Source of the DNA: Planctomycetota bacterium
GTDB taxonomy: Bacteria; Planctomycetota; UBA8108; SXIK01
Direction: 5' to 3'
Assembly: GCA_965223265.1 (NCBI GenBank)
Contig: OZ244999.1
Location: 1,824,001-1,888,000 of the forward strand
DNA length: 64,000 bases
Both the position numbers and the translations under genes were made by a program. Positions 27,270-35,248 of the stretch are shown piece by piece. The first letter of the stretch is position 1. Every line of letters starts with the position of its first letter. A model generated the notes under the pieces. The model worked only from the letters and a program-made list of their open reading frames with translations. It did no database searches and had not been told where the DNA came from.

Positions 27270-30200
27270 TCAACGACAACCAGTAGGCGCAGCGCAGCCG
27301 AGACGCCGATCGAGCGTCGGTTCGCCGCGGCCGCAGGCTGGGTAGGGGGCCACTGGCGGCGGTGCGGAACCGAAGAGGTGATTGAGCAGCGCCAGTGGAT
27401 CTGAAATGTCGACGCCGTCGTCGCCGTTGACGTTCGTGGAGGCGACACAGTTTGGGGAAGTGTTTCCTTGGAACATCCAAATCAACATGCAAAGCGCGTC
27501 CGCGATGTCGACGCCACCGTCGTCGTTACAGTCGCCGCGAAGAAACATCGGCGCGAGATGTGTTTCGCAGGGTACCGACAAGCTGGCGCGAAAAGTTTGA
27601 GACATTATAGTGCCGCCGCTCGCCGGGTCGATCAGACGCACGAGAATCTGGTCGATTTCCGCCGCGCCGTCGCTGACGGTGAAGGTCGCTGTCGCCGTCC
27701 CGGTTCCCTGGAGGTAGAGCTGCGACGTCCGCGCCTCAACCGTCAACGAGCTCGCCCTCCAGTCCGCGACTGGTGCAGCGACGATCTGCACAGGTGCCGG
27801 CGCGTTTTCGAACTTCACTGAGACTGTGACGCTTTCGCCGTATTCGATGCAATCGGTGGCTGCAGTGCTCATCGTGAGCTGCGACAGGGTCGCGTCGCAA
27901 ACGTCCCCAATACCGTCTCCATCGACGTCTTCTTGGCGGGCGTTGGCGACGAACGGGCAGTTGTCTTCGGAATCGCAGACACCGTCCGCATCGCTGTCGC
28001 CACCATCGTTTGCGCACGCGCCAGCGTCAATCGCTTCGCCCAGTCGCCACAACCGAAGAACGAGTTCGCCTGTCGCGGAGTGGACGTCGCCACTCACGTA
28101 GTCGCCCTCGGCGGAGTTCGTGGGGAGTGCCGTGAGATCGACTCGTCGCGGCGCGCGATGGGTCGGCGCGCCTTCGGTGGTGTTCAGCTCGAATGCGCGC
28201 TCGGCCCACCCGAGGTTTTCGACCACGCCCGATTCGGCGTCTGTTCTCCAGCTCGACACTCGGAGCTGACCGAGAGTGTCGACCGTGGCGCTGATGGCGA
28301 CAGTGCTGGTGACGCGGTCGAGGGCGAACGTCCGCACCTTCACGCCGTTCAAGGTGGCTGCGGCGCGAAAGTCCGGCGTGAAGAGCTTGCGATAGCCGTA
28401 GTCGAACAAGCGGTATGCGTCGCCGCTGCGGTCGTCCGACTGCTGCAGCGCCACGTTGAGCGTGCGGCCGAGCCGTGTCGTCTGCATCACCAGACAATTG
28501 GTGCAAAACGGCGCACCTTCGAACCCCGGAACCGTGACGCCGAGGAGGCCGTTCTTCCAGCCTTCGACACCGGGATAGCTTGCAAAGCCGCGATCGAGGC
28601 TCCAGCACTTGACAGGCTCTACAGCGCCAACCGCCAGATCGAGGTCGGTGCACTCACACGCGGAGTAGTCGCTCGGACCGGTGGTTTCACGTACGAGGCT
28701 GTACTGCCATGCAGACCGCCACAGCGTCACTTGATCTTGCGGCGTGGTCACAACCCCAGCTGCCGGGTGGCTGTAAGCCGTGTCGCTGAGACCGAGGAGC
28801 GACGCCTTGCGGTTCATGAGGCCGACGAAGGCTTCCTTCTTATCGCCTTCGTGTCCGTACGCCTGGGCTACGTGCTCTGCTATCGCCACCGAAGCGCGGT
28901 TTCCCGAGGGACGCATCATCCCGTAGAGGAGCGTCTCCAGCGTCACGCAGTCTCCCTCCTCGAGGAGAGGGCTCATCTTGCTGCCGCCCGCAGCGGCGGC
29001 GACTGCACTGATCTCGACGTTGTCCGCGAGGCTGAGCCCGAGCGCCGGGTCTTCCAGCGCCTCCGCCGTGAGCAACAACGTCATGACTTTGGCGACGCTC
29101 GCCGCGTGCACGCTCGCCGGTTCGCCAGGAGGCATTTCGAGGAACATCTCGCCGGCACGGACGCCGTGCTGCGACTCGGTGAGCCCGTCCGTCAGGATCG
29201 CACGGACGCGTCGACGCACGCCTTGAAACCAATGCTGTGTGCCGGAGCTGCGCAGACCGGCGCCGCTGGCAGCCGCGTAGATCACCCGGATGGAGCCGAC
29301 GTCCACACGCTCCTTGAGATCCTGTTTCGGCGCGCTCACCACGAGGTCATCGATGCCGTCGCCGTTGAGGTCTCCAGCAGCCGAGTTTCGACCGAAGTGG
29401 GCGTTCAGCTCACGGTTGTCACTCCAGGCGTAGACGAATTGCACGCCTGTCGCAGCCAATCCCGTCTCCGCTGCATAGATCACATGCACCGCGCCGATCG
29501 GAACCCCGCTGCCGCTGGGTTCACTCGGCGACCCGGCCACCAGGTCGCATCTGCCGTCGCCGTTGAAGTCGCCGCTCGTCAGGCTCCAGCCGAAGAAGTC
29601 GGAGTCTTCGCTTGGATCCTTGCCGAGTTCGTCCTCGCTCCACAGTTGGCTGTTGGTTGCGAACAGTCCTCCGGCGAAGCCGTAGAGCACGTGGACGACG
29701 CCGACGTTGGCGGCGTTCAAGTCCTCGAATCGCTCGTTGGGGACACCGATGGCGAGATCGTCGCGAGCGTCACCGTTGAAGTCTCCAGCTGTGAGACTGA
29801 GCGCGAAGCGGTCGTTTGCTTCAGCCACTTCGTCGATGCCGGCGCTGTCCTGATGGAAGACTCGGTCGTTGTCGGCGGAGAGGCCGAACGCTGACCCGTA
29901 CACGATGTGCACCGCGCCGGCGTCGGTCGCACCGGTGGCCTCGATGTCTTCTCGTGGCATGCCAACAGCCAGATCCCCGAAGCCGTCACCATTGAAATCG
30001 CCGGAGGCCAATGAATCGCCGTAGTTGTCGCCGTTCTCCGCTTTCGGCGCCATGCCGCTGACGTCAGCATGAAGGAGAAAGCTCCCAGCCGACACCAGGC
30101 CAGCTGCAGATCCATAGACGATCTGGACGGCGCCAGCGTTCGCGGCGGCGCCGATGTTCGCTCCCGGTATACCCATGGCGAGGTCGTGAAAGCCGTCACC

Positions 30201-31721
30201 GTCGAAATCATTCGCCGTCAGGGAGAGGCCGAACCGATCCGACGTCTCAGCCGCTGCCTCTATGCCGTCAGAGTTGCGGTACCACAGTTGACTGCCGGTG
30301 CCCTGGAGACCGCCGTCAGGATTGCCGTTGAGCACGTGGACAACCCCGGCGTCGATGACGCCGTCGACGTCCTCACGTGGGGCACTGACGGCGAGATCGC
30401 GAATACCGTCGCCGTTAAAGTCCGCCGCGACGAGCGCGTGACCGAACTCGTCGCCAGGCTCTGAAGCGCCTTGGACACCGGGACTCGCTTGACTCCAAGC
30501 CTGGTCTTCCTTCGAGCCTATGAGCCCGCGCGGCGAGGATCCGTAGATCACATCGACCATTCCACGAGCTTCGCTGTCGCCTGAAATTCCGACCGCTACG
30601 TCCTCGACGTTGTCACCGTCGAAATCCGCGATGGCCACTGACGATCCGTAGTAGGAGAAATCGGCACCGTTCTCCGCGCGCGAATCGGTCAGGGCCGGGT
30701 CGTCCAGGCGGATGCCAAAGTGGGCCAAGGGCCCAGCCGCGATGTCCGTTAAGTCAACTTGATCTTTGAGATGGTCGCTGAGCTGAAGCGAGGTGGGCGC
30801 CTTCGCATCGGTGCCTTGCCACGCCTGCCAGGAGACGAGCTTGGCAAGGCCGACGTCACGCACCGCCGTGACAAATCCCCGCCGACTCAACGGCGCGGCG
30901 GCGAACTGCTCAACCTGTTCGGCGACCTCAACGCTGCCGCGCAGGTCTTTCCCCGTGCTAGTGCTACTGACTTGCACGATTTCGCCGTTGGCTGTCGTCT
31001 CGATCTGCAGCGACGCCAGGAGGCCGTTTTCGGTGCGGTAGGTGAGAATCCACGTTCCGGGAACGCCGAGGTGTGTGACTTCGAGATCCCCGTCGAAAGC
31101 GTCGTCCGCCTCGAGCTCGAGGGTGAAATCGTTGACGGTGGACAAGCTTGGAGGCTGTGTCGTGACGCGGAGGAGAATCGCCCGCACGTGGGTCTCACCA
31201 TCGGTGCCGATTCCAGCGACGGGGACAAGAACGTTGTACATTGGGGTGATCAGCTGCGGCGTTCGTTCGGACGCGATCGCGTAGTCTCGGACGAGCAGAT
31301 CTGTGCTTGCGGCATCATCGAGCTGCGTGAGCTCGCCGTCCCTTCCCAGTGCGAACAGATCGAGAACGAGCGACTCGTCCTCAGATATGCGACCGAAAAG
31401 GAAGGGAGAGACAGTCGTCGGGCGACCGTGGCGGAGGGCATGCAGCCGTAAGTAGGCGCCTGCGGCCGGCGACGACTCGTCGAGAGCAACCGGTTCGAGA
31501 GCGAGTCCGGCGAGCGTCCAGCTTGTGACGACGTATTCTTCACCGGAACCGACTGCGGTGACGATGTGAGGTGCAACCGAGCCTTGAGGCATTCCCCCGA
31601 GGTGCGTAACGTCGACCTCCTCGACTTCGCCGAGGGCGGGGACGCAACAGAAACACAGGATGCTCGCCAGGAGCTGTCGAATCGGCGGCAACGGAAAACG
31701 GCGCGAGGGTGCGGAATTCAT
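27270..31721 (-). CDS. Secreted FG-GAP repeat protein with D-Ala-D-Ala carboxypeptidase (peptidase S11) domain, TSP3 repeat and dockerin
   Basis: Signal peptide; GDFNGDG..DLA.G repeats; ASVAKVMT (SxxK), SGN (SxN), KNG (KTG-like); DNCPFVAN..Q.D.DGDGIGDVCD; FLRGDCNDDGGVDIAD. Confidence 0.88.
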   Translation of the reverse strand: MNSAPSRRFPLPPIRQLLASILCFCCVPALGEVEEVDVTHLGGMPQGSVAPHIVTAVGSGEEYVVTSWTLAGLALEPVALDESSPAAGAYLRLHALRHGRPTTVSPFLFGRISEDESLVLDLFALGRDGELTQLDDAASTDLLVRDYAIASERTPQLITPMYNVLVPVAGIGTDGETHVRAILLRVTTQPPSLSTVNDFTLELEADDAFDGDLEVTHLGVPGTWILTYRTENGLLASLQIETTANGEIVQVSSTSTGKDLRGSVEVAEQVEQFAAAPLSRRGFVTAVRDVGLAKLVSWQAWQGTDAKAPTSLQLSDHLKDQVDLTDIAAGPLAHFGIRLDDPALTDSRAENGADFSYYGSSVAIADFDGDNVEDVAVGISGDSEARGMVDVIYGSSPRGLIGSKEDQAWSQASPGVQGASEPGDEFGHALVAADFNGDGIRDLAVSAPREDVDGVIDAGVVHVLNGNPDGGLQGTGSQLWYRNSDGIEAAAETSDRFGLSLTANDFDGDGFHDLAMGIPGANIGAAANAGAVQIVYGSAAGLVSAGSFLLHADVSGMAPKAENGDNYGDSLASGDFNGDGFGDLAVGMPREDIEATGATDAGAVHIVYGSAFGLSADNDRVFHQDSAGIDEVAEANDRFALSLTAGDFNGDARDDLAIGVPNERFEDLNAANVGVVHVLYGFAGGLFATNSQLWSEDELGKDPSEDSDFFGWSLTSGDFNGDGRCDLVAGSPSEPSGSGVPIGAVHVIYAAETGLAATGVQFVYAWSDNRELNAHFGRNSAAGDLNGDGIDDLVVSAPKQDLKERVDVGSIRVIYAAASGAGLRSSGTQHWFQGVRRRVRAILTDGLTESQHGVRAGEMFLEMPPGEPASVHAASVAKVMTLLLTAEALEDPALGLSLADNVEISAVAAAAGGSKMSPLLEEGDCVTLETLLYGMMRPSGNRASVAIAEHVAQAYGHEGDKKEAFVGLMNRKASLLGLSDTAYSHPAAGVVTTPQDQVTLWRSAWQYSLVRETTGPSDYSACECTDLDLAVGAVEPVKCWSLDRGFASYPGVEGWKNGLLGVTVPGFEGAPFCTNCLVMQTTRLGRTLNVALQQSDDRSGDAYRLFDYGYRKLFTPDFRAAATLNGVKVRTFALDRVTSTVAISATVDTLGQLRVSSWRTDAESGVVENLGWAERAFELNTTEGAPTHRAPRRVDLTALPTNSAEGDYVSGDVHSATGELVLRLWRLGEAIDAGACANDGGDSDADGVCDSEDNCPFVANARQEDVDGDGIGDVCDATLSQLTMSTAATDCIEYGESVTVSVKFENAPAPVQIVAAPVADWRASSLTVEARTSQLYLQGTGTATATFTVSDGAAEIDQILVRLIDPASGGTIMSQTFRASLSVPCETHLAPMFLRGDCNDDGGVDIADALCMLIWMFQGNTSPNCVASTNVNGDDGVDISDPLALLNHLFGSAPPPVAPYPACGRGEPTLDRRLGCAAPTGCR

Positions 31722-32189
31722 TGTGACTGAGACTCCCTTTGTGCTTGTGCTGTGGCCCGGATCGGCTGACGGGGCCACAAGGGAATCGGGGGGTCGGAGA
31801 TTCTTGATGGTTCATGCTTTCGGCCGCTGTTAGCGTCATTTCGGCGGCACAGGTGCGTCCCACGCCCCCAAAGCTTGGCTGCCTCGTCGAGAAGACAGGG
31901 CTTTGTCGCTCGAGGGGCGCGCTCGCCGGGGCCATGCACGCGCACGCGCCAGGCGCCCAACGTCGTAGCGAGAGCAACGTTGGAGAGATGTAGGTGTGGA
32001 GCGCGCGCTCGGTTTCTTGTCCTCGGGGGCGCATTGTCCTATCATCGGGAGTCAACGATCCGGTTGGAGGCGCACGCACGCCTCCGGCGTCGCGTCGAAC
32101 GTGAGATGTGGCGCGATCGGGCCCGCGCTGCAGCATACGGCGACTGCAGCGCGGCGGCGGTGATCTGGAACCGCTCTTGCACACGCCGC

Positions 32190-32410
32190 GAAAGGAGGTG
32201 GTCCTTGTCACAAGACTTGACGGTGATTCGCGAGGTGGTGACCTCCTGATTTGACACGAAATCTTTCGGTGTCATCCCCCTGAAGGTCGTTGGACCTCAG
32301 ATAGCCCTCGGACGGGCTATCTGCTTTCTCTGCTCAGGAGGAACCAGGCACCACCGAAGCCCCGATGGACCGTGCCATCACCGGCGGAGACCCATCGGGG
32401 CTTTTTTTTT
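32190..32410 (+). ncRNA. Candidate structured small RNA / sORF transcript (extended SD, 14-aa sORF 32205-32249, several hairpins, terminator)
   Basis: GAAAGGAGGTGGTCC at 32190-32204, TTG start 32205, ACCTCCT at 32241-32247, hairpins at 32252-32274, 32284-32297 and 32298-32323, + strand terminator 32357-32410. Both flanking genes are on the - strand. Confidence 0.55.
32357..32410 (+). terminator. Intrinsic terminator
   Basis: Stem aagccccgatgg/ccatcggggctt running into a T9 tract at 32402-32410. Confidence 0.75.
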
Positions 32411-32520
32411 GCCCTGACGATAGCGACTCTCGCCGCAGGCCACGACTCTCAGGCGTGGGGAGGCAGTCGCTCCTGACTGACGCGCAGCGCGCACGACCGA
32501 TCGCTGGGCTCGTCCTCGTC

Positions 32521-32757
32521 TTAGAATAACGTATACATAAACGATCCGAGCGGCGTGCTGTGAAGAATGATGAGTAGTCCAAGGAGAAGCAGCACGATGA
32601 CGATGGGGGCTAACCACCACCTCTTGTTGGTGATGAGAAAGTCGTAGAACTCCGCGACGATGCCTACCGACTCCGCCTCGGCCTGGCGGGCGAATTCGTC
32701 CGCGCTGGACGAAGCGTTCGGCTGTTGGTTTTGGCGGGTTGAGTCGTCCGATTTCAT
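32521..32757 (-). CDS. DUF5989 (SxtK-like) small membrane protein
   Basis: EFYDFL..NKRWWLAPI..VLLLLGLL...FMYTLF. Confidence 0.85.
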   Translation of the reverse strand: MKSDDSTRQNQQPNASSSADEFARQAEAESVGIVAEFYDFLITNKRWWLAPIVIVLLLLGLLIILHSTPLGSFMYTLF

Positions 32758-32776
32758 TTAGGTGCCAGCGGGGGTA

Positions 32777-33181
32777 TCAGAATTGCTTGAAGTATCGCGA
32801 CTTGCTTGCGGCGGCCGCGCGTGGCGTCCAATAGGAGTCTTCCCCAGTCATGCCTCTGTGCAGCGGATCTCGTCCACAGAGGCGCATCAAAAAGCCAACG
32901 GGCACGACGACGAGGTAGAACACAGAGCCAAGCAGGACCTGTGTCAGCGTCCAGCCGATGGGGAACGTCAAGTAGGTCCAGCCAAGGTAGATCGGGCGCC
33001 GTAGGGGCGGGACAAATGCAAAGAGGGGCGCCACAACCGCAGCGCTGGTCCAAGCGACCTTGCCCGCTGTCGCGTTCACCTGCCAGTAGAGCACGGCGCC
33101 AAGTGCGGCAAAGAACACGACGAAGGCGATGCCGAATAGTCGCAGCTCCCTCGGTGACGGGTTCTTGTTGATCTCGATCAT
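32777..33181 (-). CDS. SxtJ family membrane protein
   Basis: RELRLFG, P.Y.GW....PIGW, FYLVVVPVG..MR..GRDPL, SYW, Y.KQF. Confidence 0.88.
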   Translation of the reverse strand: MIEINKNPSPRELRLFGIAFVVFFAALGAVLYWQVNATAGKVAWTSAAVVAPLFAFVPPLRRPIYLGWTYLTFPIGWTLTQVLLGSVFYLVVVPVGFLMRLCGRDPLHRGMTGEDSYWTPRAAAASKSRYFKQF

Positions 33182-33193
33182 AGCAGGATTTCT

Positions 33194-35032
33194 TCAATCA
33201 AGAGAGAACTGAGCTAGATAGGCGTCCGTGTCGATGGGGGGCGCGTTTTTCTGTTCCGTTTTGAGAACAAGGCAGCGCTCCAGCACGAGGGCGTCCATGT
33301 TTGTCGCCATGAAGCAATGATAGGCCTCTTCAGGGGTGCAGACAATCGGTTCGCCGCGGACGTTGAAGCTCGTGTTGATGAGAACAGGGCAGTTTGTCCT
33401 TTTTTCGAAGCTTTTGAGAAGGCGGTAGTAGCGTCCATGCCGGCGTTTATCCACGGTCTGAACGCGTGCGGAGTAGTCGACATGCGTTGTCGCTGGGATC
33501 TCGGATCTGCTGACGTGGAGACGGTCGAACCCACTTGGCTGTTGTGTCCCGTCGACGCACTCTGTTCGTTTGGCATTGCTCACCGCTGCGACAAGGAGCA
33601 TGTATGGACTCTCGCTCGCCTCGGGTAGGTCGAAGAATTCGCCGGCACGCTCGGCAAGCACCGACGGCGCGAACGGACGAAACGACTCGCGGAATTTGAT
33701 CTTCCGGTTCATCACAGACTGCATCTTCGCGCTGCGTGCGTCACCCAAGATGCTCCGTCCCCCGAGCGCTCGCGGGCCAAACTCCATGCGCCCTTGCATC
33801 CAGCCGACGACGCTCTCGTCGGCGAGCAGCTCTGCCACGCGGTCGCAGAGGGACTCGTCGTCGTCAAAGCAGTGGTACTCCGCGCCAGCCTTGTCTAGGA
33901 AGCGCTTCACCGTGGCATCATCGAATCCGGGACCGAGATAGGATCCCTGCTGCGCGTCGCCGACTTGGAGGACTCGCGGTTGGTCGAGTAGTTGATGCCA
34001 GATGAACAGCGCAACACCAAGTGCACCGCCTGCGTCACCCGCAGCAGGTTGAATCCAGATGTCGTCCAAGTCGAGCTCGTCCAGCAGACGGCCGTTGCCA
34101 ACGCAGTTGAGTGCCACGCCGCCAGCAAGACAGAGTCGCTTCATGCCTGTCTCTGCGAGTACGTGGCGCGCCGCTCGCAGCATGATTTCTTCGGTGACTT
34201 TTTGGATCGACGCCGCGATGTCCATATCGCGCTGCGTGATCGCGGACTCCGGCTTTCGCGGCGGGCCACCGAAGAGGCGATGGAATTTGCGGCTCGTCAT
34301 CGTCAACCCTTGACAGTAGTTGAAGTATGACATGTCCATGTGCAGCGATCCGTCCGGCTTCAAGTCGATCAGCTTTTCGAGGATAAGTTCGGCGTATCTG
34401 GGTTCTCCATAGGGCGCTAGGCCCATGAGCTTGTACTCCCCTGAGTTCACCTTGAAGCCGGTGTAGGCTGTGAACGCCGAGTAGAGGAGACCTACCGAGT
34501 GGGGAAACCTGAGTTCGTGCGTCAGGTGGATACTATGCCCGCGGCCGATGCCATAGCTCGCGGTGGCCCATTCGCCGACACCGTCGAGTGTCAAAATCGC
34601 AGCCTCCTCGAACGGTGATGGAAAGAAAGCGCTCGCCGCGTGAGATTCGTGGTGCTCGGCGAAGACGTAGCGTTTCTTGAACCCACCGCCGAGCCCCTTC
34701 CTCAGTTCTCGCGGCAGATGGAGCTTTTGTTTCAACCACAGCGGCATGGCGCGGCGAAACGAGCGCCAACCGACGGGAACGAATGACAGGTAGGTCTCGA
34801 GCAGGCGCTCGAACTTTAGAAACGGTTTGTCGTAAAAACCGACGTAGTCGAGATCCTGTGCTTCCAGACCGGCTTCGCCGAGACAGTAGGAGATGGCTTC
34901 GACGGGGAATCTGTGGTCGTGTTTGGTACGCGAAAAACGCTCTTCTTGCGCCGCAGCGACGATCTCACCGTCGACGATCAGCGCCGCGGCGGAGTCGTGA
35001 TAGAACGCAGAAATACCTAGAATTGCACTCAT
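33194..35032 (-). CDS. O-carbamoyltransferase (NodU/CmcH, SxtI-like)
   Basis: ILGISAFYHDSAAAL, EHHESHAASAF, GEYKLMGLAPYG, AGGVALNC, EFGPRALG, KFRESFRPFAP, NTSFNVRGEPIV. Confidence 0.95.
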   Translation of the reverse strand: MSAILGISAFYHDSAAALIVDGEIVAAAQEERFSRTKHDHRFPVEAISYCLGEAGLEAQDLDYVGFYDKPFLKFERLLETYLSFVPVGWRSFRRAMPLWLKQKLHLPRELRKGLGGGFKKRYVFAEHHESHAASAFFPSPFEEAAILTLDGVGEWATASYGIGRGHSIHLTHELRFPHSVGLLYSAFTAYTGFKVNSGEYKLMGLAPYGEPRYAELILEKLIDLKPDGSLHMDMSYFNYCQGLTMTSRKFHRLFGGPPRKPESAITQRDMDIAASIQKVTEEIMLRAARHVLAETGMKRLCLAGGVALNCVGNGRLLDELDLDDIWIQPAAGDAGGALGVALFIWHQLLDQPRVLQVGDAQQGSYLGPGFDDATVKRFLDKAGAEYHCFDDDESLCDRVAELLADESVVGWMQGRMEFGPRALGGRSILGDARSAKMQSVMNRKIKFRESFRPFAPSVLAERAGEFFDLPEASESPYMLLVAAVSNAKRTECVDGTQQPSGFDRLHVSRSEIPATTHVDYSARVQTVDKRRHGRYYRLLKSFEKRTNCPVLINTSFNVRGEPIVCTPEEAYHCFMATNMDALVLERCLVLKTEQKNAPPIDTDAYLAQFSLD

Positions 35033-35086
35033 GTGGGAGAGGCATCTCGCAGGGTGTGATCGGCGCGAGGTCGCGGACTCGTTCCA

Positions 35087-35248
35087 ACAGCCCGTTGAAA
35101 AAGTCATTCGGCCGAGGAAACTGGTCTCTTCACGCCCAGCTCGACCGCGTCAATACTCGAAAATCCCGAAGATTGCCTGCGTTTGCCGCGGCCGATCTGG
35201 ACGCGAAGAGACCAGTTTTCGGCTCGAAGCACTTTTTCAACGGGCTGT
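35087..35248 (+). mobile_element. MITE (non-autonomous, ~160 bp, 18-bp terminal inverted repeats)
   Basis: acagcccgttgaaaaagt ... actttttcaacgggctgt; closely similar copy at 44097-44263. Confidence 0.85.

Follow-up and report, generated by a model that had tools for sequence, protein, structure and literature searches.

The closest described counterpart of the element studied here is rreB of Bradyrhizobium, a stand-alone mRNA of 165 nt with an open reading frame (ORF) of 14 amino acids (aa), in which a perfect 17-nt complement of the 16S rRNA 3' end finishes on the opening base of that ORF's GTG start codon (PMC5711450). In the parts of that study considered here, the RNA co-sediments with the 30S subunit and binds it tightly, its translation is weak, and removal of the start codon stabilises it, its turnover being start-codon-dependent; analogues (rreR and others) are reported solely from four alpha-proteobacterial orders (PMC5711450). 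No follow-up work on rreB was found among the literature matches listed. A second RNA, Ms_IGR-5 (Rfam family RF02471), is described in the portions used of its sources as a Northern-validated, NAD-capped and 'yet uncharacterized' small RNA (sRNA) of M. smegmatis, validated by RNA-seq in S. lividans (10.1101/2021.12.14.472595, PMC8079986, PMC10454040). We analysed a stretch of 64,000 nt from a Planctomycetota bacterium (assembly GCA_965223265.1, contig OZ244999.1, positions 1,824,001 to 1,888,000 of the forward strand; hereafter the window), and compared with these RNAs the locus at 32052-32410 (+), numbered from the first letter of the window.

We lean towards reading this locus as an independent gene whose product is a structured, rre-type small mRNA, which would dock on the 30S subunit and act as a ribosome-gated switch or as a sensor of ribosome availability. 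The initial annotation, made from the letters of the window, had already suggested a ribosome-binding RNA or translation sensor, a proposal that fits one experimentally studied analogue, rreB, as far as its published description was followed (PMC5711450). Comparison with relatives establishes the predicted gene boundaries, the homology, the frame, start and stop of the ORF, a long-range helix and the hairpins of a 5' domain. The elements are as follows.

32017 to 32045, + strand: putative promoter with a -35 box TTGTCC (32017-32022), a 17-nt spacer and a -10 box TATCAT (32040-32045), from a sigma-70-like scan and conservation.
32054 to 32189, + strand: 5' domain of about 136 nt, composed of P1, H1, H2, H3 and H4, from alignment A1 and folding.
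32059-32065 with 32115-32121, + strand: helix P1, the weakest of the domain (75.3% paired).
32066 to 32085, + strand: hairpin H1, loop CACGCA, from alignment A1.
32087 to 32114, + strand: hairpin H2, from a single-sequence fold only.
32123 to 32154, + strand: hairpin H3, with CGGCG in its loop, from alignment A1.
32156 to 32175, + strand: hairpin H4, loop GAUCUGGA, from alignment A1.
32190 to 32204, + strand: extended Shine-Dalgarno (SD) tract GAAAGGAGGTGGTCC, from complementarity to the 16S 3' tail.
32205 to 32249, + strand: ORF of 14 codons, TTG start and TGA stop, (M)SQDLTVIREVVTS, from translation and the conserved frame.
32232 to 32240, + strand: GAGGUG, an invariant hexamer that resembles an SD inside the ORF and lies 9 nt ahead of the stop, and GGUGGUG (32234-32240), from the alignment.
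32242 to 32249, + strand: ORF end and stop CCUCCUGA, anti-SD-like, with 32334-32341 as partner, from minimum-energy folds.
32253 to 32323, + strand: three clade-specific hairpins (32253-32274, 32281-32299 and 32298-32323), from folds.
32334 to 32356, + strand: UCAGGAGG (32334-32341) and the conserved box CCAGGCACCACCG (32344-32356), from conservation and energies.
32360 to 32410, + strand: terminator with the stem CCCCGAUGG/CCAUCGGGG (32360-32368/32392-32400) followed by T9 (32402-32410), from sequence, fold and relatives.

The initial annotation had matched the tract GAAAGGAGGTGGTCC at 32190-32204 (+) to a typical 16S 3' end at 14 of 15 positions, and this is borne out against the 16S tail of the host itself, which ends in ...GGATCACCTCCTTTCT (a single 16S gene was detected): 14 of the 15 bases are complementary and the remaining one forms a G.U pair. 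The predicted duplex reaches -28.8 kcal/mol over 15 pairs. The 15-mer GAAAGGAGGTGRTCC, with R at the wobble position, occurs twice on both strands of the 9,179,496-bp genome, in which 0.038 occurrences are expected, and the copy other than this locus is the antisense of the 16S gene itself; the match therefore exceeds chance. TTG adjoins the tract directly, yet its T is unpaired with the 16S RNA in the window. Read from this TTG, the ORF 32205-32249 translates to LSQDLTVIREVVTS*, in agreement with the coordinates and peptide first proposed, and ACCTCCT (32241-32247), GAGGT (32232-32236), AGGAGG (32336-32341) and T9 (32402-32410) likewise lie where they had been placed. In addition, the region 32150-32415 folds with z = -5.07, a value that none of 200 shuffled sequences equals.

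Among 40 other genomes of the class, blastn, the check for homologs that had been suggested, found relatives in 13, which all belong to two families of the window's order (12 of 14 genomes in family f2 and 1 of 3 in f1, as against 0 of 3 in f3 and 0 of 20 in other families of the class). An exact pattern made of the SD and the ORF core was present in 6 of 401 genomes sampled across the phylum, again all from the window's order, and the reversed control pattern gave none. In a collection with one genome per species, the same pattern retrieved 114 stretches, four of them by chance (L057, L077, L095, L126) and 110 being relatives. According to the depositors' labels, these 110 comprise Binatia/Binatota (43), 'Deltaproteobacteria' (16), Planctomycetota (13), Rokubacteria/Methylomirabilota (12), Myxococcota-type (4), 'Enterobacteriaceae' (4, probably mislabelled), Thermodesulfobacteriota (3) and Limnocylindria (1), while 14 are unlabelled. 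The four contigs of 'uncultured Enterobacteriaceae' metagenome-assembled genomes (L053, L060, L062, L080) carry a Binatia-type RNA with the peptides VALTNMVISEVVAS and VAISNKVICEVVAS, and their labels are probably wrong. Within the class of a Binatia genome the exact pattern was found in 12 of 41 genomes, and in the phylum-wide sample around it in 1 of 51, the centre genome itself. As an exact pattern was applied to genomes that are mostly metagenome-assembled, each of these pattern-based counts of the distribution is a minimum.

For the structural comparisons, six loci cut by contig ends were dropped and the window and the loci of its 13 relatives were added, giving 118 sequences in 64 clusters at 93% identity. 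The RNA is typically 296-372 nt long, with a few members of up to 468 nt that contain inserts. The sequence AAGGAGGTG[GA]TC is present in every relative, including the actinobacterial set found with a covariance model, although for the 110 pattern-found relatives its presence is partly imposed by the search design. Most of the 64 representatives share the identical AGAAAGGAGGTGATCCAG, an 18-nt complement that reaches the very 3' end of the 16S RNA. Since GTG stands 7 nt past GGAGG in 39 of the 64, this complement ends on the G of GTG. A search of a plasmid collection with the RNA of one relative gave no match at E <= 0.01. One relative (L016) has, besides its full copy, a second partial match of 34 nt (91%) to the 3' half of the ORF (G011:C236:6187-6220), possibly a fragment or a second target-like site.

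The claim of a conserved mini-ORF behind a ribosome-directed tract is supported by the frame, start and stop in these relatives. An in-frame ATG, GTG or TTG lies 3-14 nt past GGAGG, with no stop between, in all 64 non-actinobacterial representatives; the other two frames offer such a start codon in 4 and 0 of the 64. The stop falls exactly five codons after the invariant GAG in 86 of 87 sequences (63 of 64 non-actinobacterial and 23 of 23 actinobacterial), and it is TAG in 71, TGA in 10 and TAA in 6. A canonical in-frame start is found in 13 of the 23 actinobacterial members, and several of the others have CTG.

We also observed a long-range helix between the ORF and the downstream box, in which CACCACC (32349-32355) is the 3' strand and GGUGGUG (32234-32240) its partner. 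All seven pairs form in 102 of the 118 sequences and six of seven in the remaining 16, counts that lean slightly upward because the register was picked as the best of six offsets. Compensatory variants are present: GGTGGCG:CGCCACC (3), GGTGACG:CGTCACC (2), GGTGATG:CGTCACC (4) and GGTGGTA:TACCACC (1). The actinobacterial helix is longer, as in GGUGGCUGC:GCAGCCACC and GGUGACUGCG:CGCAGUCACC; a crude longest-run test between ORF and box did not discriminate own from swapped partners in 24 actinobacterial RNAs (7.38 versus 6.97), and the support there consists of individual compensated pairs read by inspection. The Rfam consensus for RF02471 does not contain the GGUG:CACC helix; there the ORF is paired with the 3' part of the SD, and the CACC box stays unpaired.

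The initial annotation had proposed a switch in which ACCTCCT pairs either with the SD or with the local GAGGT. This is not upheld by the folds and by the relatives. In the minimum-energy folds, the ORF end CCUCCUGA pairs with UCAGGAGG at 32334-32341, a helix of -15.0 kcal/mol as compared with -12.7 kcal/mol for pairing with the true SD, and because of this difference the anti-SD-like ORF end is more likely, in these models, to be held by a downstream decoy than by the SD. The bipartite helix between the 3' half of the ORF and 32330-32358 is predicted at -25.2 kcal/mol. The local GAGGT hairpin is not conserved in the family, and pairing of the SD with the ORF end is absent from actinobacterial members. 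The three hairpins and the second AGGAGG that had been noted are present in the window, but they are specific to its clade and not family features. Indeed, the spacer varies between 38 and 164 nt and cannot be aligned between clades, and GGGAGGA is found in many clades, not in all; the terminal stem enclosing a hairpin with an (A)UCACC loop is a family feature. A hairpin at the stop codon in other clades (GGCCU-CCU-AGGCC) showed no excess for its own partner in a fixed register (4.02 versus 3.90 of 5 with swapped partners); it is absent from the window's clade, and we do not claim it.

Upstream of the SD, the consensus that RNAalifold gave for the 5' domain was poor (-11.16 kcal/mol, 18 pairs), and the domain was tested instead with a manually drawn structure and with slide and shuffle controls. 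In alignment A1 (62 sequences), the 23 pairs of P1, H1, H3 and H4 are 86.7% paired, as compared with 31.9-55.1% when the structure is slid along the alignment. The covariation score of 0.382 compares with 0.054-0.148 for the slid structures and is reached by none of 500 shuffles. This domain, of 119-175 nt, is found only outside Actinomycetota, actinobacterial RNAs beginning about 8 nt before the SD. A weak Rfam match to the gabT RNA at 32114-32166 on the - strand (27.8 bits with a cut-off of 45, E = 0.02) is the H3 hairpin read on the opposite strand and most likely due to chance.

That the + strand carries a previously unannotated stand-alone transcription unit had been suspected from its terminator, and the conserved promoter, the terminator and the homologs now support it, the transcript itself being predicted. 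TTGTCC/TATCAT is the sole sigma-70-like site that the promoter scan gave in 31500-33000, and it aligns with a conserved TTGACA-N17-TAnnnT in the 13 relatives of the same order and in other phyla. From this we infer that transcription would start near 32052 and run to the T9, giving a transcript of about 360 nt (32052-32410, +, the 5' end approximate). The + strand terminator with T9 is present as first described and its stem covaries in relatives: the longest complementary run averages 11.1 with the own partner and 7.9 with swapped partners in 53 representatives. Nested within this stem is another hairpin, with AUCACC in its loop. The consensus terminator scan does not list it, because the enclosed hairpin makes the loop longer than 8, and it was called from its sequence, its fold and its conservation in relatives.

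The relation to Ms_IGR-5 was examined with a profile built from 36 RNAs of the family, none of them from Planctomycetota or Actinomycetota. This profile finds the window at 32184-32409 with E = 3.2e-20 (positions 3-196 of the hidden Markov model), as the top match of the whole genome. Of 24 actinobacterial RF02471 matches examined, it also recovers 21 with E < 0.03, including seven with E below 1e-7. Conversely, two of 16 non-actinobacterial relatives scanned pass the RF02471 cut-off of 45 bits (L064 with 48.4 and L044 with 47.1 bits), the match spanning the part from the SD to the terminator. RF02471 matches are present in 36 of 121 genomes of the Actinomycetota sample and exceed the cut-off in 17; the sequences of four unpublished genomes among the 36 were left out. 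Like the window, Ms_IGR-5 (ncMSMEG15794c) has an SD tract, a mini-ORF ending in E-V-x-x-x-stop, a GGUG...CACC complementarity and a terminal stem with an inner hairpin; unlike it, it starts about 8 nt before the SD, has no 5' domain and lacks the V-I codons in its ORF. Seen from the RF02471 architecture, the window has the SD, the ORF, the box and the terminal stem, about 136 nt precede its SD, and the stop hairpin is absent. The portions examined of the later literature (the original 2013 paper apart) contain no description of an ORF or of an anti-16S tract for Ms_IGR-5, and no functional study under the names Ms_IGR-5, MSMEG_5794/5795, RF02471 or the ncRv names was found in the literature searched. 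Two RF02471 matches (43.9 and 41.1 bits) lie in one actinobacterial genome (G444:C126:9255-9458 and G444:C17:3902-4104), the RNA being single-copy elsewhere. A weak RF02471 signal (E <= 1) was also seen in the control genome of Caulobacter vibrioides, which belongs to an order with rre analogues according to the part of the report consulted (PMC5711450).

On these grounds the following mechanism may be proposed. An SD/anti-SD helix of unusual length would dock the RNA on the 30S subunit, and by analogy with rreB this docking would result in tight 30S binding and poor escape into elongation. The last five codons and the stop would be locked in the bipartite helix with 32334-32355 (UCAGGAGG and the CACCACC box), which an elongating ribosome would have to melt, thereby freeing the box. 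The conformation, translation and decay of the RNA would then be decided at the ribosome, which is why we speak of a ribosome-gated RNA switch or of a sensor of ribosome availability; the peptide, the freed box or the occupancy of 30S are candidate outputs. We infer 30S binding, actual translation and any regulatory output by this analogy, in which the window RNA would be an rre-type design with an extra 5' domain.

Several observations weigh against this proposal. The Rfam scan suggested at the outset gave no RF02471 match in the window, either at the gathering cut-off (45 bits) or at E <= 10, nor a gathering match to any other family; a search of its own genome gave one unrelated RF02471 match of 12.2 bits elsewhere. 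Since the 36-RNA profile joins both sides while an actinobacteria-only profile sees the window at E = 0.26, the window is, as judged from sequence profiles, a remote relative that intermediates connect to RF02471, and Rfam's own test does not count it as a member; with this kinship and the rre hallmark, it can no longer be called an orphan of no known family. Ten of the 23 actinobacterial members have no in-frame ATG, GTG or TTG, so translation may not be universal. The minimum-energy folds of the window lack the GGUGGUG:CACCACC helix, the box pairing with the H4 region instead. The tract has 15 nt with a wobble and is followed by TTG, as compared with the 16-17 nt, extending the SD on both sides, that define rre genes, and the putative link to these genes rests on common hallmarks. 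Data on ribosome binding and translation exist for rreB alone, the window gene being known from DNA comparison; a search of sequencing runs listed four, all from one study, that contain this DNA, and none of RNA. Finally, growth was unaffected when rreB was overexpressed (PMC5711450), which makes a simple titration of ribosomes unlikely; the part of the report used calls the function of rreB 'elusive' (PMC5711450).

Another possibility is that the RNA acts in trans as an antisense of the 16S 3' minor domain (the tail and helix 45), with immature or damaged 30S as one possible site of action and the ORF being secondary. We hold this to be unlikely, although many relatives do continue past the tail complement into the antisense of helix 45, in register and with the helix 45 type of their own host. 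When non-actinobacterial RNAs were compared with the GGGGAA-type helix 45 at shift 0, runs of at least 6 were found in 27 of 64, of at least 7 in 21 and of at least 9 in 13, as compared with 0-1 at each of 12 other shifts and with 1 of 64 against the actinobacterial type. Actinobacterial RNAs gave runs of at least 9 against the CCGGAA type in 4 of 23 and none against the other type, and the 3' end of the host's 16S gene, read as antisense, is likewise matched by the family profile (E = 0.0042). However, helix 45 is a closed hairpin in the mature 30S subunit, the window has only its 15-nt tail complement and no helix 45 match, and 19 of the 23 actinobacterial members likewise show none. Moreover, the matching bases double as the first codons of the conserved frame; the match may be a relic of an rDNA origin, or it may reflect pairing with an open helix 45.

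Because the relatives match the antisense of helix 45, this idea can be carried further, to a family of trans RNAs aimed at the 3'-terminal ~40 nt of 16S (the tail and the 5' strand of helix 45) and co-evolving with the helix 45 of the host. Such RNAs would test, or act upon, 30S subunits in which helix 45 is still open (immature, unmethylated or damaged), as a checkpoint of small-subunit biogenesis and quality control or as a 'test mRNA' conserved from Actinomycetota to Planctomycetota, with the mini-ORF as test translation; we put this forward as a speculation of low probability. Two resemblances noted by eye concern the same region. At 32203-32219, CCTTGTCACAAGACTT resembles the antisense of AAGTCGTAACAAGG, the 16S segment immediately 5' of helix 45, a pattern that would amount to skipping that helix and may be chance. 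In Binatia relatives of the 'GTG ACG ...' type, such as L051 and L043, the hairpin before the CACC box repeats CCCUACGGGG, nearly identical to the helix 45-antisense segment of the first ORF codons, as an internal repeat.

The conservation of frame, start and stop would also be expected if the RNA were simply the mRNA of a functional micropeptide, x4-5-T-V-I-[CSR]-E-V-V-[TA]-S, whose synthesis is merely tuned by the structure. In the 110 relatives among the 114 pattern matches, the ORF has 13-16 codons and ends in ...VI[CS]EVV[AT][SP]*, preceded by T in the common TVI[CS]EVV[AT][SP]; V-I-x-E-V was imposed by the search pattern, the start, tail and stop were not. The Ile and Ser codons vary synonymously among relatives (ATT/ATA/ATC and AGC/AGT). 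On the other hand, the N-terminal 4-6 residues are free to vary, the actinobacterial peptide differs (x5-T-[RC]-E-V-A-[AV]-x, without the V-I codons), and ten of the 23 actinobacterial members have no canonical start. In addition, where the V codon following E-V is replaced by one for A, T or M, the distant box changes with it, so that the constraint at this point is on the RNA. As regards the question raised at the outset, whether the peptide or only the RNA is conserved, frame, start and stop are kept, the peptide sequence is not kept across the family, and the box covaries with the ORF. Synthetic RreB and RreR are unstructured and unrelated in sequence, according to the part of the study considered (PMC5711450), and the peptide strings of this family had no match in the published literature searched. 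We find a functional micropeptide improbable as the main role.

Judged to be about as improbable is a dual-function sRNA that base-pairs in trans, the box CCAGGCACCACCG being its mRNA seed, exposed only by translation of the mini-ORF. The box is the best-conserved single element outside the SD and ORF and is masked by the ORF; Ms_IGR-5 was recovered with heterologous Hfq in the 2013 study, as cited by others in the sources used, and leader-peptide RNAs that act in trans have a precedent in the available accounts of rnTrpL/peTrpL. Yet the covariation of the box with the ORF is fully explained by intramolecular pairing. To our knowledge, no Hfq-type sRNA biology is known in most of the host phyla.

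A leader-peptide attenuator or another cis-regulator of a downstream gene has the layout in its favour (SD, short ORF, alternative helices and terminator), as well as a Dus gene downstream on the same strand in one relative (L013); we regard it as very improbable, given the own conserved promoter of the RNA, the convergent genes downstream in the window and neighbours that vary. The flanking genes are all on the - strand, as initially annotated: on the left, a 1502-aa FG-GAP/Peptidase_S11 protein, and on the right, DUF5989, a 147-aa protein and a carbamoyltransferase. In the relatives, the neighbours include Aminotran_5 (convergent), Dus, adh_short and Sulfatase, either convergent or divergent; no conserved synteny was seen, and 5 of 10 flanking ORFs tested had no Pfam family. 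As promoter and terminator are conserved and neighbours differ among relatives, the locus is, on this comparative evidence, a stand-alone unit and not the leader of an adjacent gene. A type I toxin-antitoxin-like mRNA, also suggested at first, would fit a short ORF whose highly structured mRNA sequesters the ribosome-binding site, but it finds no supporting evidence and can practically be dismissed: with 14 aa the peptide is not long enough to cross a membrane, an antisense partner is not apparent, and the RNA, chromosomal and present in a single copy, has a distribution that looks vertical within clades.

The divergent gene on the left (27270-31778, -) encodes six FG-GAP repeats, a D-Ala-D-Ala carboxypeptidase (Peptidase_S11) and a thrombospondin type 3 repeat. 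The three genes on the right (32521-35107, -), which converge on the RNA terminator, encode the carbamoyltransferase (637 aa), the 147-aa protein, which has no family, and DUF5989 (78 aa), with overlapping stop and start codons. An ORF of 54 aa (32365-32529), whose ATG lies in the terminator, was rejected as it crosses the T9 terminator and starts 23 nt past AGGAGG. We also rejected tmRNA, the genome's one tmRNA being at C1:1023522-1023874 (ARAGORN) and the window ORF having an SD and a start codon. A T-box was discarded after the Rfam search of the window, in which the weak matches (gabT, asX2, sar, CC2171 and others) are chance or terminator-like. As for 6S RNA, the conserved structure is multi-branched and the genome gave no RF00013 match at E <= 1, a search that says little, as it gave a signal in just 5 of 14 control genomes.

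On this reading the locus belongs to a little-studied class of small mRNAs that bind the ribosome, a class represented in many bacterial phyla. The rre genes are known from one experimental paper, which as far as it was consulted concerns alpha-proteobacteria only, and Ms_IGR-5 is expressed yet uncharacterised in the sources used. The same design is now seen in Planctomycetota and joins Ms_IGR-5 through relatives with Binatia, Methylomirabilota, Myxococcota and Limnocylindria labels. It comprises the anti-16S tract, a mini-ORF whose stop lies at a fixed distance from the invariant GAGGUG, and the helix between the ORF and the CACC box. This conservation across phyla argues for a basic, ribosome-linked role, and M. 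smegmatis and Streptomyces are tractable models in which to study the role of these RNAs.

Compared with rreB and rreR, the locus is likewise a stand-alone small mRNA with its own promoter and terminator, as predicted here for the window transcript. The complement of the 16S tail is 17 nt in rreB, 15 nt in the window and 18 nt in most relatives, and it extends up to, or onto, the first base of a start codon other than ATG; the ORF has 14 codons in the window and in rreB and 18 in rreR. In both groups the peptide is not conserved between clades, and the genomic context is conserved neither between orders (rre) nor among relatives (the window family). Unlike rreB, the window RNA has about 360 instead of 165 nt, a structured 5' domain of ~136 nt, a TTG start and a wobble in its tract, the 3' half of its ORF pairs with a distant conserved box, and its host is a planctomycete. 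The rnTrpL/peTrpL RNA of Sinorhizobium is similar in being a short terminated RNA with an ORF of ~14 codons, in which, from what was seen of its description, ribosome occupancy and structure matter; it originates at the 5' end of trpE(G), from which it is released, and its ORF senses Trp codons, whereas the window has no downstream gene and no run of codons for a single amino acid. Finally, the extended SD of rpsU (bS21) in Flavobacteriales, in the part of the study considered, likewise probes the availability of the 16S 3' tail (PMC9976891), but that long SD controls a normal protein gene, while the one in the window heads a mini-ORF in a dedicated RNA.

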